64,000 nucleotides of DNA from Ruminococcus sp. Lineage in GTDB: Bacteria; Bacillota; Clostridia; Oscillospirales; Ruminococcaceae. Below are positions 37,189 through 45,371 of the stretch, in pieces (position 1 is the stretch's first letter; every line of letters starts with the position of its first letter). The notes beneath the pieces were generated by a model, which was given only the letters and a program-made list of their open reading frames with translations, was not told the origin of the DNA and ran no database searches. Position numbers and translations under genes: made by a program. Location: contig SVNI01000003.1 in the NCBI GenBank assembly GCA_015066975.1, positions 17,951 to 81,950 of the forward strand. Reading direction: 5' to 3'.

Positions 37189-37392
37189 TCAGGAATCTGT
37201 CTTGTCACCCTGCCCGTAGTAAGTATAAATTGCATCATCCGGATGTATAAGATAGTTTTCCAGCGGAACAGGAGGAAATCCGTCTTTTAAAAAAATTGCA
37301 GTCCATTCTCTGTAAAAATTAAGTTTTTCAAGAATAGCATCATCTGACCAGCCCATTGCTTTCATTTTTTGAGCGAATTCTGCTTCCGTCAT
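37189..37392 (-). CDS. hypothetical small protein (67 aa)
   Basis: ORF only (MTEAEFAQKMKAMGWSDDAILEKL...). It lies immediately downstream of the tRNA pair. Confidence 0.4.
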   Translation of the reverse strand: MTEAEFAQKMKAMGWSDDAILEKLNFYREWTAIFLKDGFPPVPLENYLIHPDDAIYTYYGQGDKTDS

Positions 37393-37450
37393 AGCCTGTC
37401 ATCTCCATATTTAAGAAAAAATAAAAATTCCGGTATTTTCATACCGGAAC

Positions 37451-37535
37451 TGGTGGGAGAGGATGGATTCGAACCATCGAAGCAAGAAGCAACAGATTTA
37501 CAGTCTGCCCCCTTTGGCCACTCGGGAACTCTCCC
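37451..37535 (-). tRNA. tRNA-Tyr (anticodon GUA), long variable arm, CCA encoded
   Basis: Reverse complement is GGGAGAGTTCCCGAGTGGCCAAAGGGGGCAGACTGTAAATCTGTTGCTTCTTGCTTCGATGGTTCGAATCCATCCTCTCCCACCA. Confidence 0.9.
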
Positions 37536-37561: not shown

Positions 37562-37637
37562 TGGAGCTGGTGGACGGACTCGAACCCCCGACCTGCTGAT
37601 TACAAATCAGCTGCTCTACCAACTGAGCTACACCAGC
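37562..37637 (-). tRNA. tRNA-Thr (anticodon UGU), CCA encoded
   Basis: Reverse complement is GCTGGTGTAGCTCAGTTGGTAGAGCAGCTGATTTGTAATCAGCAGGTCGGGGGTTCGAGTCCGTCCACCAGCTCCA. My fold has one G:G mismatch in the T-stem. Confidence 0.85.
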
Positions 37638-37872: not shown

Positions 37873-39357
<1,485 letters not shown>

Positions 39358-39371
39358 ATTAATTAAAAATT

Positions 39372-40856
39372 ATGATGAATCAGCCTGTGAATTTCTATCA
39401 GATCACTCGCTGTACAGAAACAAATGCTTTCACAGCCATGCTCCGCTATCAGAGCGGTAACTTCGCTGTGAAAGCTAAATCCAAAGAAATCGACTCCATG
39501 AAAATACTCGCTGATGCGTTATATTCTCATGGAGTTGCTGTTTCTGAAATGGACGGCTTCTTTCTGTCAGTGAGTTTCCGCTTCGGAAAAGAATTTGATT
39601 TGCTTAAAATCAATGATTCCGCCTGTCTGAATCTGGAACTAAAAAGCACATTGCAGAATTATTCCTCCGAACAGGCAGAAGAAAAAATCCGCAGTCAGCT
39701 ACGGAAAAATAAACATTATCTCTCTGTTCTGGGAAGAAAATTATATCTCTACACTGTCGTAACGGATTCCATGAAATGCTATCGCATGTCAGAAGACGGC
39801 GGATTCAAAGAAATCTGCTTTTCTGAAATCGTATCAGCCGTGAAGCACTTCTTCGGCGCGTATCTCTCCGATATTGAAAGTCTGTTCCGGCCGTCGGAAT
39901 ATCTGGTTTCTCCGCTGAATCATTCCAGAAAATTTCTGGAGCATATCTATTTTCTGACCCACGACCAGGAAGAAAAGAAAAAAGAAATTCTCGAAAAAAT
40001 GCGTTCGAATTCTGTCATGTTCGGCCTGACCGGGGAAGCTGGTACGGGCAAGACCCTCATGCTCTATGATATTGCAAGAGAACTCGCACAGGATGCGCCT
40101 GTTCTGACGATACACTGCGCTTCGGAAATTCCTGTCGGACTTTCAGCAATCGAACATCAGATTCAGAATCTGAAAATTCTCCGCCCGAAAGATTTTCAGA
40201 ATCAGGACTTGTCCGCCGTTCTGAATAAGTATCAGTATATTCTTACAGACGAAACACAGAGAGTCTATTCCGGTCTGATGACACAGATTTATAACTATAT
40301 CCGGAACAAGCACAAGTCTGCATTTATCTGTTTTGATTCCAGACAGACACTCAGCGTTCAGGAGGAGAATCAGAATATTGCACAATGGGCATATCAGCAC
40401 TGTGATAAAATCTATACGCTGAAAAATACTATCCGGACGAATGCCGAAATCATGCACTTTATCCGGAAACTGCACAATCTGAACTATCACATTCCGGCGC
40501 AGGTGCAGGCGGAACTGCCTGAACATGTCCGCATCTGCTATGCTGGAAATGGTCTCGAAACAGATAACTTTCTGGATTATTACAGACTTCCCGGAAATGG
40601 ACGGTATCAGTTTATTTCTCTCGATTCCTGTAATGCCGTTATCGGGCAGGAATTCGATAATGTCATGTTGATTCTGGACAAGATATTCTATTATGATGAA
40701 AATCAGAAACTCTGCGCTCATAATAATCAGGAATTTTTGTATATGCACAGGCTCTATCAGGCACTGACACGCGCAAGAGACAGGCTCGTGCTGATTATCA
40801 CAGATAAAAATTTATTCATGCAGATGATTTCTGCGTTAGGAGATGAACTATCATGA
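39372..40856 (+). CDS. PD-(D/E)xK/NERD-like nuclease domain fused to a P-loop SF1/DUF2075-like ATPase (494 aa)
   Basis: N-domain EFD76LLKINDSACLNLE89LK91 followed by Q109LRKNKHY116. LTHDQEEKKKEIL. Walker A GEAGTGKT (40032-40055). Walker B YILTDETQR. C-terminal VIGQEFDNVMLIL and LYQALTRARDRLVLII. No Shine-Dalgarno sequence before ATG 39372. Confidence 0.7.
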   Translation: MMNQPVNFYQITRCTETNAFTAMLRYQSGNFAVKAKSKEIDSMKILADALYSHGVAVSEMDGFFLSVSFRFGKEFDLLKINDSACLNLELKSTLQNYSSEQAEEKIRSQLRKNKHYLSVLGRKLYLYTVVTDSMKCYRMSEDGGFKEICFSEIVSAVKHFFGAYLSDIESLFRPSEYLVSPLNHSRKFLEHIYFLTHDQEEKKKEILEKMRSNSVMFGLTGEAGTGKTLMLYDIARELAQDAPVLTIHCASEIPVGLSAIEHQIQNLKILRPKDFQNQDLSAVLNKYQYILTDETQRVYSGLMTQIYNYIRNKHKSAFICFDSRQTLSVQEENQNIAQWAYQHCDKIYTLKNTIRTNAEIMHFIRKLHNLNYHIPAQVQAELPEHVRICYAGNGLETDNFLDYYRLPGNGRYQFISLDSCNAVIGQEFDNVMLILDKIFYYDENQKLCAHNNQEFLYMHRLYQALTRARDRLVLIITDKNLFMQMISALGDELS

Positions 40857-41284
40857 TTAACTGGTTAAACAAACAAGAGGAAGCATGGGAAGGTACGTTC
40901 CGGAGCGAATTCTTCCGGAATGAGGATAATCAGAATGAATTATTCGTATGTGCCGAAGCTCCCGTTGATACCGATTATGCGGAAAAAGCAATTGAAAATT
41001 TCAACGCTCTGCCGGAAGATGTCATTCAGGAAATCTGCAAAGGCATTGTCAGACTCGCAGGGCAGGGCGGAATAAATGAAGATTTCACCCTTCCGGAACT
41101 TTCCGTTCCTGAAGAAATTCTCGAATACTGCTGGTTTACAACGCTCTATATCAACGTACAGGAAAACGGTGAAATTATTCTCGAAGGTGAGGGAGAATGG
41201 GAAGAAGTTATCGACATTGTGCTGAAAAATAATCAGATTGTCTATATCGGAACGGAGTATTTTGATTATGATTCAGAATCTTGA
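40853..41284 (+). CDS. small acidic protein, paralogue A (143 aa), unknown family
   Basis: Its ATG overlaps the stop of the ATPase gene (ATGA), with AGGAG 10 nt upstream. It shares WEGTF.S.FFR, YAEKAIENFNALPEDVI, ILEYCWF, EGEGEW and Y.GTEY with the next two ORFs. Confidence 0.7.
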   Translation: MINWLNKQEEAWEGTFRSEFFRNEDNQNELFVCAEAPVDTDYAEKAIENFNALPEDVIQEICKGIVRLAGQGGINEDFTLPELSVPEEILEYCWFTTLYINVQENGEIILEGEGEWEEVIDIVLKNNQIVYIGTEYFDYDSES

Positions 41285-41696
41285 GTATGATGAAGAAGGC
41301 ATCGGAGAGGGAACTTTCAAGAGCCGTTACTTCCGTGATGATATGGGGGAAGATGAATTTACAGTCTATCTCAAAGGTAAATCTTTTCTCGGCTATGCGG
41401 AAGAATGTGTTCAGCATTTCAATGCTCTGCCGGAATCTGTGATAAATGACATCTGTCAGAAAATCATAGAGTATGTACAGCAGGATTATGAAGATTTTCC
41501 GCTTCCGGCGTTCGGAAAGCCTACAGAAATTCTGAATTACTGCGGATTCGGTTCGCTTGAAATCGGCTGTCCGAAACATGGAATCGCTTATGTGATACAG
41601 GGCGAAGGCGACTGGGGAGACTCTTTTGAAGTCATTATCAAAAACGGTCAGCCCGTCTATGCCGGAACAGAATATTTATACGAAGATTGGAGTTAA
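41268..41696 (+). CDS. small acidic protein, paralogue B (142 aa)
   Basis: GGAG lies 10 nt before ATG 41268, and the ORF overlaps paralogue A by 17 nt. Motifs: GIGEGTFKSRYFRDDMG, VQHFNALP, ILNYC, QGEGDWG. Confidence 0.7.
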   Translation: MIQNLEYDEEGIGEGTFKSRYFRDDMGEDEFTVYLKGKSFLGYAEECVQHFNALPESVINDICQKIIEYVQQDYEDFPLPAFGKPTEILNYCGFGSLEIGCPKHGIAYVIQGEGDWGDSFEVIIKNGQPVYAGTEYLYEDWS

Positions 41697-41699
41697 ATC

Positions 41700-42131
41700 A
41701 TGATAAAATTCAATTATGCTCCCGACGGCATCGGAGAAGGCACTTTCAAGAGCAGATATTTCAGAGACGATATGGGCAGTGATGAATTTCTCGTCTATAT
41801 TTTCAGTAAAGATTATGCCAAGTATGCCGAAAAATGCGTTCAGCATTTCAACAGTCTGCCGGATAATGTCATTAATGTGATTTGCTATCATATCATTGAA
41901 TCTGCAAAGCAGAATCTGCATAACCCCGGCTTTGTCCTTCCGGAACTTGAAAAAAATACCGATATTCTGAATTACTGCTGGTTTAAAGCCATGATAGTCA
42001 GCATTCCCGGTGATGATTCCAAAGCTTCTTACATCATGCAGGGCGAGGGCGACTGGGGCGAAATGATTGGCTTTGTTGTCACGGAAGATACTGTCACCTA
42101 TGTAGGGAAAAATTATATGCCCAATCGCTAA
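41700..42131 (+). CDS. small acidic protein, paralogue C (143 aa)
   Basis: GGAG lies 7 nt before the ATG, with a 3-nt gap after paralogue B. Same motif set: GIGEGTFKSRYFRDDMG, VQHFNSLP, ILNYCWF, QGEGDWG. Confidence 0.7.
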   Translation: MIKFNYAPDGIGEGTFKSRYFRDDMGSDEFLVYIFSKDYAKYAEKCVQHFNSLPDNVINVICYHIIESAKQNLHNPGFVLPELEKNTDILNYCWFKAMIVSIPGDDSKASYIMQGEGDWGEMIGFVVTEDTVTYVGKNYMPNR

Positions 42132-42148: not shown

Positions 42149-42177
42149 TTGCAAAAGTGTAAATCTTATGTTACAAT
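42149..42177 (+). promoter_or_regulatory. promoter of the second GH94 gene
   Basis: TTGCAA (42149-42154), 17 nt, TGt-TACAAT (42172-42177). Confidence 0.55.
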
Positions 42178-42211: not shown

Positions 42212-44608
42212 ATGCAATACGGATATTTTGATTTGAAAAACAAAGAGTATGTGATTACCCGCCCCGATACCCCTGCACCATGGGTTAACTATTTAGGTTC
42301 TCCTGAATATGGCGCAATCATTTCCAACAATGCCGCCGGATACAGTTTCGTGCAGTCCGGTGCGAACGGCAGAATTGCACGTTTCCGGTTCAATTCCATG
42401 ATGGCTCTGCCCGGCAGATATATCTATCTGCGCGATATGGATTCTAATGACTACTGGTCTGCAACATGGCAGCCTGTCGGCAAGTCCCTCGAAGAATACA
42501 AGAGCGTATGCCGTCACGGTACAGCATATTCTGTTATGACAAGCGATTATTCTGCTGTCAATACAGAAACAACTTACTATGTTCCTGCCGGTCAGACTTA
42601 TGAAGTTTGGAGAACCAAAATTACAAACAATGATACCAAGGCAAGAAAGCTTTCTGTATTCGGATTTATCGAATTCACAAACGATAACAATTACGAACAG
42701 GACCAGGTAAACCTTCAGTATACATTGTTTATTACCAGAACTGAACGCAAGGGCAATAAAATTCTCCAGCATATCAACGAGAATTCCGGCAAGTGGGCTG
42801 ACGGCTCTAACCATAAGGAAAGATTTTTCGGCATGGCTGGCGCAGAAGTGCTCGACGGCTGCGGAAGTCTGGAACAGTTCATCGGACCTTACAGAACCTA
42901 TTCTAATCCGATTATGGTCGAAAAAGGCAAGTGCGACGATTCTATGAACTTCAATTCCAATGCCTGCGGTGCGCTCCGGACAGAAATCACTCTCCAGCCC
43001 GGCGAATCCAAAGAATTAATCTATTTCTTAGGCCAGAAAAATGATGCAGAATCTGCTGAAATCCTCAAAGCTTACGAACAGCCCGGAAAAGTTGATGCCG
43101 AACTCGCAGAGCTGAAATCCTACTGGCACGGCAAACTTGCTAATTTCGAGGTAGAAACACCTTCTGAAGAATTCAATAACATGATGAATGTCTGGAATGC
43201 ATATCAGTGCTTTATCACGTTCATCTGGTCGAGAGCAGCTTCTTTTATCTACTGCGGATTAAGAAACGGCTATGGCTACAGAGATACTGTTCAGGATATT
43301 CAGGGTATTATCCATCTTGACCCCGAAATGGCTGCCGAAAAAATCAGATTCATGCTTTCCGCTCAGGTCGATAACGGCGGCGGTCTGCCTCTGGTAAAAT
43401 TCAATCATAATGCCGGTCACGAAAATACTCCCGATGACCCCGAATATGTCAAGGAAACAGGCCACCCGTCCTACCGTGCTGATGATGCCCTCTGGCTGTT
43501 CCCGACTATCGTGAAATATATCGGTGAAAGCGGTAATGCTGGTTTCCTAGACGAAGTTATCGTCTATGCTAACGGCGGTGAAGATACCGTTTATGAACAT
43601 CTCAAGAGAGCTATCAAATTCTCTATGGAACATATGGGCGGTCATGATATGCCTGCCGGTCTCCATGCTGACTGGAACGACTGCCTGAGACTCGGTGCTA
43701 AGGGCGAATCTACTTTCGTCGCATTCCAGCTCTATTACGCTATGAGCGTTATCAGAGATATGGCAGAATCCAAAAACGATACGGATTATATCAAGTATAT
43801 CGACGACGTGCAGAAGAAACTCGGCGATTCTCTCGAAAAGTGCTGGGATGAAGACAGATTCATCAGAGGTATCAGAGAAGACGGTGTTATCGTCGGTGCA
43901 AAGAAAGACCCCGAAGCTAATATGTGGCTCAATCCGCAGAGCTGGTCTGTTATCTCCAAGTTTGCAAGCGATGAACAGGCTGACAAAGCTATGAACAGTG
44001 TTCACGAAATTCTGAATACGCCTTACGGTGCAAAGCTCCTCGAACCGCCCTATAAAGAACATTATTTCGACGGTGCACTAATGCATATCTTCAATGCGGA
44101 TACCAAAGAAAACGGCGGTATCTTCTCCCAGTCGCAGGGCTGGCTGATTCTTGCCGAAGGTCTGCTCGGACACGGCGACAGAGCTTTTGAATATTTCCTC
44201 GAAAGCTCCCCGGCTACTCTGAACGATAAGGCGGAAATCAGAGTGCTCGAACCGTATGTTCACGGACAGTTCACCGAAGCAAAGCATTCTCCGTTTGCAG
44301 GACGTTCCCACGTTCACTGGCTGACAGGTACGGCTTCTACGGTAATGGTCGGCTGTACAGAGGGTATCTGCGGTATTCGTCCGGATGCTGACGGCATCAC
44401 GATTTCTCCCTCGATTCCTTCCGCATGGGACGGCTTCAAGATGAAGAAGAATTTCAGAGGCAAAAAGCTGAATATCTCCGTTGAGAATCCGAATCATGTG
44501 CAGAGCGGTGTGAAATCCGTATCTGTCAACGGAACAGTTCAGGAAAGTGCCTATATCAAGGCATCTGACCTGACTGAAACTAATGAAATCATTATCACAT
44601 TAGGCTAA
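42212..44608 (+). CDS. GH94 glycoside phosphorylase (chitobiose/cellobionic-acid-phosphorylase-like clade; specificity unknown)
   Basis: MQYGYFDLKNKEYVITRPDTPAPWVNYLG...GRYIYLRDMDSNDYWS. 798 aa. Same fold family as 6065-8524 but clearly diverged from it. Confidence 0.8.
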   Translation: MQYGYFDLKNKEYVITRPDTPAPWVNYLGSPEYGAIISNNAAGYSFVQSGANGRIARFRFNSMMALPGRYIYLRDMDSNDYWSATWQPVGKSLEEYKSVCRHGTAYSVMTSDYSAVNTETTYYVPAGQTYEVWRTKITNNDTKARKLSVFGFIEFTNDNNYEQDQVNLQYTLFITRTERKGNKILQHINENSGKWADGSNHKERFFGMAGAEVLDGCGSLEQFIGPYRTYSNPIMVEKGKCDDSMNFNSNACGALRTEITLQPGESKELIYFLGQKNDAESAEILKAYEQPGKVDAELAELKSYWHGKLANFEVETPSEEFNNMMNVWNAYQCFITFIWSRAASFIYCGLRNGYGYRDTVQDIQGIIHLDPEMAAEKIRFMLSAQVDNGGGLPLVKFNHNAGHENTPDDPEYVKETGHPSYRADDALWLFPTIVKYIGESGNAGFLDEVIVYANGGEDTVYEHLKRAIKFSMEHMGGHDMPAGLHADWNDCLRLGAKGESTFVAFQLYYAMSVIRDMAESKNDTDYIKYIDDVQKKLGDSLEKCWDEDRFIRGIREDGVIVGAKKDPEANMWLNPQSWSVISKFASDEQADKAMNSVHEILNTPYGAKLLEPPYKEHYFDGALMHIFNADTKENGGIFSQSQGWLILAEGLLGHGDRAFEYFLESSPATLNDKAEIRVLEPYVHGQFTEAKHSPFAGRSHVHWLTGTASTVMVGCTEGICGIRPDADGITISPSIPSAWDGFKMKKNFRGKKLNISVENPNHVQSGVKSVSVNGTVQESAYIKASDLTETNEIIITLG

Positions 44609-44615
44609 AAAAATA

Positions 44616-44646
44616 TCCCCGGCTGTGCAAGCCGGGGAATTTTTTA
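44616..44646. terminator. terminator between the GH94 gene and the convergent coiled-coil gene
   Basis: TCCCCGGCT / AGCCGGGGA hairpin followed by ATTTTTTAT. Confidence 0.7.
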
Positions 44647-45171
44647 TAGTATATCGTGATATTTCATCCAGTAATCTGCTTTCTGATAAGCGAGCTGTTC
44701 TTTCTGCATTATCAGAGCGGTTTCGCTGTTGGAAGCAGAAATCTGTGCATACTGTGAAGCAACAAGAGAATTCTGTTCGGTATTGACTGCGCTTTCCTGA
44801 ATGCGCTGTAAAGATGCAATCATCTGTTGATTCTGACTGAAAAGCATTTTGTTTGTCTGTGCCTGTTGTAGAATCATTTCTCCCTGATTGCTGATAATCT
44901 CATCCAGTTTCTTTTTAATGGCATCCAGATTTGCCTGAATCAGAGCACTTTGCAGACTTTGCTGAGAGGTGGACAGATAATCATAGAGATAATAAACTCC
45001 CTCGATATTGCGGAACTGCAACGGAATGATATTTGCAGAATAGGCTCTTGAAAGTGCGGATTTGAGCTGATTTTGTTCGGCTTCGATTTCTGCGATAAGC
45101 TGGTTAATCTCCTGTTCGAGTTTTTTTATTTCTAATTCTTCCTGTTGTTTTTCCTGATTGAAAGCATTCAT
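44644..45171 (-). CDS. Gln/Asn-rich coiled-coil protein (175 aa), unknown function
   Basis: ORF with strong heptad character (EELEIKKLEQEINQLIAEIEAEQNQL). No SD. TATAAT ends 6 nt before the ATG. Confidence 0.5.
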   Translation of the reverse strand: MNAFNQEKQQEELEIKKLEQEINQLIAEIEAEQNQLKSALSRAYSANIIPLQFRNIEGVYYLYDYLSTSQQSLQSALIQANLDAIKKKLDEIISNQGEMILQQAQTNKMLFSQNQQMIASLQRIQESAVNTEQNSLVASQYAQISASNSETALIMQKEQLAYQKADYWMKYHDIL

Positions 45172-45371
45172 TTGCGTATTATAGTCAGCAAGCTGTCTCT
45201 GATAGTTTCTTTATTTTTTCAGTGAATAAAACTTTATACTTTCTATTTTACACAAAAAAAAATACAACTATTTTTTCAAAAAATCTTCAAAAATTGTTTT
45301 TTTTAAATAAAAAATGCCGGATTTTGCAAATCAAAGTTAGCAAAATCCGACATATGGATTATCATGCTTTT

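Follow-up and report, generated by a model that had tools for sequence, protein, structure and literature searches.

The DNA-mimic inhibitors Ocr, ArdA and Ugi are small, cytoplasmic and strongly negative proteins. In polyimmunity loci, distant paralogues stand in tandem and in one orientation within polycistronic units, and the content of the loci varies from strain to strain (PMC3482391). Nhi is an innate immune nuclease-helicase of Staphylococcus epidermidis (PMC11470126). We analysed a stretch of 64,000 nucleotides (nt) from Ruminococcus sp. (assembly GCA_015066975.1, contig SVNI01000003.1, positions 17,951 to 81,950), referred to as the window; all positions are those of the window except where another locus is named. 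The stretch carries three small acidic paralogous genes, A, B and C, directly downstream of a gene for a 494-amino acid (aa) protein of the type of Nhi and of AbiO from Lactococcus. A first-pass annotation of the same DNA had noticed the triplication and had guessed that the copies might be specificity variants, immunity-type proteins or DNA-mimic inhibitors. It had recognised neither the Pfam family of the genes nor the Nhi/AbiO type of the 494-aa protein.

A, B and C belong to DUF6985 (PF22481), a catalogued and uncharacterised Pfam family. Among described arrangements, the homogeneous polyimmunity loci with tandem SUKH/SMI1-KNR4 or Imm33 genes (PMC3482391) come closest: like them, the array is tandem, co-oriented, tightly packed and probably polycistronic, its close relatives differ in copy number and type, and some have gained an unrelated small gene (DUF4241). 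It differs from such loci in that the search for a toxin domain directly 5' of a DUF6985 gene found none, in that DUF6985 has no fold or sequence relation to SUKH or to any solved immunity protein, and in that the array consists of just three genes behind a phage-defence gene and not near a secretion system. The net charge of A (−26) and the family median (−21) are similar to those of the DNA mimics, but DUF6985 was not found on phages or plasmids, has no similarity to structures in PDB or BFVD, and includes the mildly acidic C (net charge −7). The 494-aa protein matches the PADLOC profiles of both Nhi and AbiO end to end, and homologues of it occur in defence islands. The catalogues list Nhi and AbiO as systems of one gene, whereas the gene here stands, throughout its clade, in start/stop overlap with or adjacent to one to three DUF6985 genes. 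With the wider PF22481 membership the A, B and C branch has in common its predicted topology and a length of about 140–165 aa. We propose, at a probability of about 0.4, that the three genes form a small polyimmunity-like array and encode binding or inhibitor proteins of a conflict type.

An old, intact three-gene array under purifying selection

The array comprises paralogue A at 40853–41284 (143 aa, isoelectric point (pI) 4.05), paralogue B at 41268–41696 (142 aa, pI 4.14, net charge −18) and paralogue C at 41700–42131 (143 aa, pI 4.84), all on the + strand and all with intact reading frames. For B, the mechanical open reading frame (ORF) call started at TTG 41238; we preferred ATG 41268 as the likely start because the consensus N-terminus of the family is MI. 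With this start, A and B overlap by 17 nt and B and C are separated by 3 nt, while the upstream Nhi-like gene and A overlap by 4 nt (ATGA). A Shine-Dalgarno-like GGAG lies 7–10 nt 5' of each start, within AGGAGA at 40838–40843 for A, at 41254–41257 for B and at 41689–41692 for C. All three proteins matched PF22481 above its gathering threshold of 24.5 bits (A, 46.8 bits, E 5.9e-12; B, 40.6 bits, E 4.8e-10; C, 37.1 bits, E 5.6e-9), over roughly positions 2–143 of the 148 in the profile.

The shared order of motifs recorded by the first-pass annotation was recovered by alignment, in which 39 columns are invariant. Its estimate by eye that B and C are about half identical with A more distant agrees with the measured protein identities (B–C 50%, A–B 39–41%, A–C 35–36%). 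The 17-residue block GIGEGTFKSRYFRDDMG is identical in B (41298–41348) and C (41727–41777), and it differs there at seven codons (nine nucleotides), all synonymously and exactly as had been listed. The high content of Asp and Glu (33, 27 and 20 residues in A, B and C) was confirmed and is reflected in the pI values. Identity between the copies at the DNA level is only 60–74%, which rules out both a recent amplification and an artefact of assembly, as had been claimed. Furthermore, the same three-gene array is present in independent assemblies (loci L008, L016, L020 and L001).

Selection was measured as the ratio of nonsynonymous to synonymous substitution rates (dN/dS) by Nei-Gojobori estimates. 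Between the paralogues dN/dS was 0.31–0.43, with dS saturated at 1–2. Between orthologues it was 0.18–0.22 for A, 0.19–0.26 for B and 0.10–0.13 for C, at protein identities of 67–98%, 71–99% and 70–96%, respectively. The comparison proposed by the first-pass annotation thus gave values well below 1 throughout, and the orthologue values indicate purifying selection on A, B and C alike. Related genomes contain a separate orthologue of each copy (against their counterparts in L001, the window copies of A, B and C are 70%, 73% and 83% identical), so the triplication must have occurred before these lineages split; the A-type clade stands apart from the B/C clade. A, B and C are an anciently diverged, selected and intact three-copy array, and the view that the duplicates are old and have been maintained by selection on the protein stands.

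The array nevertheless evolves fast in comparison with its surroundings. The flanking genes guaB and GH94 are 95–98% and 94–98% identical in amino acid sequence to those of relatives, each with a dN/dS of 0.02–0.04, and the Nhi-like gene is 79–83% identical with a dN/dS of 0.10. The dN of A, B and C is 4–10 times that of guaB and GH94.

A divergent branch of a small acidic family

An exhaustive profile search of 1.84 billion representative proteins returned 190 clusters at E ≤ 0.001, so DUF6985 is a small family. Nearly all close relatives of A, B and C belong to Oscillospiraceae, Ruminococcus and Lachnospiraceae of the gut and rumen, and paralogue A is 98% identical to a protein of L016, a metagenome-assembled genome (MAG) of Oscillospiraceae from goat omasum. 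The alignments place A, B and C on a divergent Oscillospiraceae/Lachnospiraceae branch of the family. The three proteins had no match in NCBIfam, PADLOC or PHROGs, and the literature library that was searched contained no paper mentioning DUF6985 or DUF4241.

The only near-invariant residues of the wide family are one Cys, one Trp, one Tyr and one Gly, and the DUF6985 alignments contain no family-wide catalytic residues. Distant members carry the motif CxWExEHG; A, B and C have GEG[DE]WG instead, with a two-residue deletion. The near-invariant C...CxWExEHG of the distant members could be a metal site. This putative motif is lost in A, B and C, and paralogue A also lacks the AEKC cysteine. Within the close subfamily two cysteines are invariant and the polar positions E13, S18, E44, N51 and E113 are well conserved. 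The median net charge is −21 per approximately 145 aa, in the close subfamily and in the distant members alike. Because of this charge, the few near-invariant residues and the absence of CxWExEHG from A, B and C, these proteins are probably not enzymes. The only fusions found were two long proteins, P0322 and P0355, which join DUF6985 to the uncharacterised domain DUF7832; several other longer members carry extensions without a Pfam match.

The search of Pfam and PDB that had been suggested for these genes gave a family but no credible PDB profile match. PDB profile searches were made with the three-gene alignment and with a wide-family alignment; the best match, 8ugc (FD15), was dropped since no stretch of it passes the E-value cut-off alone. 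AlphaFold2 models of A (predicted local distance difference test score (pLDDT) 92.3, predicted template modelling (TM) score 0.86) and of the distant member P0296 (pLDDT 95.4) share one topology of three strands, three helices and four strands. Foldseek searches with both models found no significant similarity in PDB or among the viral structures of BFVD (best E values 2.1, 0.04 and 0.28, the last being the best for BFVD; TM scores below 0.35).

A variable island with an Nhi-like gene

The gene upstream of A (39372–40856, + strand) encodes a predicted full-length Nhi/AbiO-type defence nuclease-helicase, with an N-terminal domain and a superfamily 1 (SF1) P-loop helicase. Against PADLOC it matched AbiO at E 2e-108 (profile positions 2–465 of 468) and Nhi at E 5e-106 (3–467 of 470), and against Pfam it matched SLFN-g3_helicase, AAA_30 and Viral_helicase1; the translation carries GEAGTGKT as Walker A and DETQ. 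The original report on Nhi is said to present it as a single-protein system. Here the TGA stop of the Nhi-like gene overlaps the ATG of A, and from this overlap the array appears to be translationally coupled to the defence gene. The left flank of the island is guaB (inosine monophosphate (IMP) dehydrogenase; 37882–39357, + strand; Pfam IMPDH and CBS domains, assigned on orthologues), whose stop lies 14 nt from the Nhi-like start. A consensus scan found no terminator-like site between guaB, the Nhi-like gene, A, B and C, and guaB is the probable start of a transcription unit that includes all of them. In the 80-nt gap after C, the same kind of scan placed a promoter-like site, a pattern match alone (TTGCAA-17-TACAAT with an extended TG; 42149–42177, + strand), and this would be the likely start of a separate unit with the right flank, the GH94 cellobiose/chitobiose phosphorylase gene (42212–44608, + strand; Pfam GH94, assigned on orthologues).

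The Nhi-like gene together with A, B and C is a small accessory, variable chromosomal island between guaB and GH94 in this rumen member of the Oscillospiraceae. Copy number and flanking genes, which the first-pass annotation had proposed to record in relatives, came to one to three copies at this site. The Nhi-like gene lies at the same guaB...GH94 site in eight lineages, with Nhi-like identities of 60–100%, and in each of them at least one DUF6985 gene follows directly downstream. In the window and in L020, A, B and C follow the Nhi-like gene. L016 also has A, B and C in this order, with a stop in C at the invariant Trp, and in L001 the three genes are followed by a DUF4241 gene. In L021, A and B are followed by a remnant of the C-terminal part of C. 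L019 has A and B, and its contig ends about 235 nt past B, so that a copy of C is possible there. L017 carries A and an in-frame B/C mosaic, L018 carries A and a 17-residue remnant of C, and L009, the most distant related island with an Nhi-like gene just 60% identical, has a single C-type gene. L001 and L016–L021 share the ATGA overlap of the Nhi-like gene with A.

Details of these relatives were as follows. The C copy of L016 (8848–9279 of that locus) reads GEGD*GE, which would make it a newly formed pseudogene unless the MAG has a sequencing error there. The mosaic of L017 (8434–8853 of that locus), which stands in for B and C, is C-like at its N-terminus, B-like in the middle and C-like at its C-terminus; such a mosaic points to unequal crossing-over, or to gene conversion, among the paralogues. 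The DUF4241 gene of L001 (7307–8044 of that locus; found also in L002 and L003) encodes 245 aa, lies between C and GH94, and is absent from the window. A DUF4241 gene also adjoins a distant DUF6985 gene in one metagenomic locus.

The window and L016 differ at 9.6% of positions in the Nhi-like gene, at 9.0% in GH94 and at only 2.3% in the array (Fisher p 2e-16). The tract of low divergence extends over about 40791–42054 (approximately 7940–9200 in L016) and covers the array but neither the Nhi-like gene nor GH94. Between the same two genomes dS was 0.00–0.07 for A and B and 0.44–0.53 for the flanks. From this difference in mismatch we infer a recent recombinational exchange in which the array would have moved as a module without the Nhi-like gene.

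Upstream of GH94 orthologues at 86–89% identity there is neither an Nhi-like nor a DUF6985 gene, which confines the island to a narrow clade. A clean "empty" guaB–GH94 site was considered and rejected; these orthologues differ in synteny and show the absence of the island alone.

In the window, the wider gene order is glycogen phosphorylase, nadB, nadC, metG, guaB, the island, GH94, deoD, plsY and der. There were no toxin or secretion genes within about 10 kb of the array and no prophage genes around it, its neighbours being housekeeping genes, and Rfam gave no RNA feature in the island. Two tRNA genes lie just 5' of guaB (37454–37535 and 37565–37637, both on the − strand), and L016 differs from the window by an indel of about 200 bp at 37201–37400. 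A second variable spot lies 3' of GH94 (44601–45200), where similarity to L016 and L017 falls to approximately 40% identity; an ORF there (44644–45171, − strand) encodes a Gln/Glu-rich protein of 175 aa without a Pfam match.

DUF6985 and Nhi-like genes in other genomes

Approximately 160 DUF6985 loci were compared: 80 species genomes with members of the close subfamily, and 80 metagenomic loci with distant members. The metagenomic set was collected with a narrower alignment and is highly redundant, several of its contigs being identical. An Nhi-like gene was present in six of the 80 species genomes, all from the window's own clade, and in none of the 80 metagenomic loci; nearly all of the 74 species genomes without one have a single DUF6985 copy. 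Conversely, five other Nhi-like contexts were examined and none contained DUF6985. The idea that DUF6985 is an obligate partner of Nhi was therefore rejected for the family as a whole, given some 154 other loci without an Nhi-like gene. Together with the tract that stops at the Nhi-like gene, these counts suggest that the array is a module separable from the Nhi-like gene.

Nhi-like homologues lie in defence islands and on 179 plasmids. Elsewhere they were found between DUF3800 genes, beside a TIR gene and inside a type I restriction-modification locus. The contexts of L179/L180, L178, L012–L015 and L184 contain more distant Nhi-like genes with varied, tightly linked neighbours. One distant Nhi-like gene lies inside a type I restriction-modification locus with an integrase gene and several hsdS genes, and one on a Rossellomorea plasmid is overlapped by a GIY-YIG nuclease gene.

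Most DUF6985 genes are single, co-oriented and embedded in housekeeping operons. The order leuC-leuD-X-leuB, with X a DUF6985 gene, occurs in approximately 12 species and with one very distant member; leuD-DUF6985-leuB was seen in L069, L076, L077, L081, L083, L084, L087, L089, L090, L092–L094 and L096. The DUF6985 proteins of these operons are 30–64% identical where LeuD and LeuB are 66–96% identical, and in one comparison the values were 51% against 95–96%. In four to five lineages (L100, L102, L117, L141 and L158) a DUF6985 gene stands between purN (formyltransferase) and the IMP cyclohydrolase gene, and others follow rnfB, upp or a nucleoside phosphorylase gene. At least three more tandem arrays have arisen independently, in the leu operons of L081 (two copies) and L082 (at least four) and in the pur operon of L117 (two). 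The copies of L082 lie at the contig start, 5' of leuB (3–1720 of that locus); three of them hardly differ, and within one ORF there is a duplicated piece of the leuB N-terminus; this is either a recent amplification or an assembly artefact.

Neighbours of immunity type were few in raw counts (DUF1963 in five loci, SUFU in two, Imm33 in one independent locus and DUF4241 in two). Pfam was run on the closest genes to either side of the roughly 160 loci, and among the 25 commonest neighbour families in each scan no recurrent toxin family was found; the single toxin-like candidate was one TPS-domain protein encoded on the opposite strand, and the other large neighbours were housekeeping proteins. 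No relative of DUF6985 was found in the viral contigs of IMG/VR, in the INPHARED phages or in the PLSDB plasmids.

Discussion

The acidity of DUF6985 proteins, their lack of catalytic residues, their fast evolution, the duplication and loss of their genes, the mosaics and the exchange of the array together fit a conflict protein that works by one-to-one binding. The part of this that concerns evolution draws on the fast dN, on the independent tandem arrays and on the variation of array content among close relatives. In our proposal, the DUF6985 proteins would be cytoplasmic, non-enzymatic and strongly acidic binders of the immunity or inhibitor type. Each would probably neutralise a basic, likely nucleic-acid-directed, protein by binding it one to one, and three diverged copies would widen the range of partners, as in the homogeneous polyimmunity loci of polymorphic-toxin systems. 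The array would be a module of its own, placed in the same operon and island as the Nhi-like gene without needing it.

Several findings weigh against this proposal and keep it tentative. No toxin gene was found beside DUF6985, either in the window or among the commonest neighbour families of the roughly 160 loci, and the evidence that defines an immunity family is therefore missing; since this adjacency was looked for and not found, we do not file DUF6985 as an immunity family. Most members lie alone in housekeeping operons (leu, pur, rnfB), which a physiological role could explain. The conserved E13, S18, E44, N51 and E113 fit one conserved partner better than many variable toxins, and in the Foldseek searches the models of A and P0296 resembled no solved immunity protein. 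The original guess of specificity variants, immunity proteins or DNA mimics is thus strengthened by the acidity, the fast evolution, the repeated duplication and the missing catalytic residues, and weakened by the lack of a toxin, of carriage on phages or plasmids and of a structural match.

The main rival reading, though an unlikely one, is that the Nhi-like enzyme has A, B and C as its accessory subunits: acidic, DNA-mimic-like proteins that inhibit it in the manner of an antitoxin or tune its trigger. The three paralogues would then represent different regulatory or sensing specificities, and the locus would be a multi-gene variant of the single-gene Nhi/AbiO. The conserved ATGA overlap fits such a role, as does the lack of a terminator-like site between the genes. 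All eight Nhi-like lineages keep at least one downstream DUF6985 gene, although the surviving copy differs, and the Nhi-like gene, like the array, evolves faster than the flanks. Strong negative charge is what a competitor of nucleic acid needs, and other Nhi-like genes have varied tight partners, among them DUF3800 genes and the overlapping GIY-YIG gene. However, all eight lineages have the pair at one chromosomal site, so that they record a single evolutionary event and not a repeated association. The some 154 DUF6985 loci without Nhi-like genes and the five Nhi-like contexts without DUF6985 likewise speak against a dedicated subunit, and so does the exchange of the array without the Nhi-like gene. 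No one paralogue is always kept, since L018 has A alone and L009 the C type alone. Furthermore, Nhi has been described as a single-protein system (PMC11470126). A bolder version, in which DUF6985 would be a new fold of acidic DNA-mimic-like regulators that this clade recruited as partners of Nhi-type enzymes, with diversified paralogues gating or retargeting the enzyme in what would be a multi-component Nhi variant not described before, appears to us rather improbable.

There is also only a small chance that DUF6985 proteins have a physiological role outside conflict, for instance as a small regulator or chaperone in biosynthetic operons, the array being a lineage-specific expansion. The recurrence of the leuC-leuD-X-leuB and purN-X-IMP cyclohydrolase orders, and of positions after rnfB, upp and the nucleoside phosphorylase gene, is what such a role would lead one to expect; the array itself lies within the guaB transcription unit, and the two subfamily-invariant cysteines and the possibly metal-binding C...CxWExEH motif of distant members could be added. 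Yet the operons differ (leucine, purine, Rnf, pyrimidine salvage), and no one pathway is therefore implicated. The family is patchy, mainly in gut and rumen Clostridia, with just 190 clusters found in 1.84 billion representative proteins; it changes far more quickly than the genes beside it in the operons, close relatives differ by its gains, losses, duplications and mosaics, and it has lost the putative metal motif in A, B and C.

That the three genes encode Ocr/ArdA-type anti-defence DNA mimics, derived from a phage or plasmid and left in the chromosome, is very improbable: small size, extreme acidity and a location beside a defence gene would suit it, but the family is absent from the mobile-element collections (IMG/VR, INPHARED and PLSDB), which largely refutes it, and there is no PHROG or BFVD match and no prophage gene in the housekeeping surroundings. 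Decaying or non-functional duplicates, to which the losses in relatives (the C remnants of L018 and L021 and the stop in the C copy of L016) might point, deserve as little credence, given three intact frames, a GGAG before each gene and 39 invariant columns, and for the window copies they are refuted by the orthologue dN/dS of 0.10–0.26.

DUF6985 itself was already catalogued; the new information is its link to an Nhi-type defence gene and the evolutionary pattern across the family. The locus and this pattern provide the first concrete functional lead for DUF6985: proteins so acidic and so quick to change, whose genes are repeatedly duplicated in tandem and lost and whose array is exchanged by recombination, look like binding proteins of a conflict type. 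If DUF6985 proteins act with the Nhi-like enzyme, a supposedly single-gene defence system would have an added level of regulation; should they instead be orphan immunity proteins, they would be a new family in the interbacterial antagonism of gut and rumen Clostridia. The four-gene operon of approximately 2.8 kb makes either claim testable.

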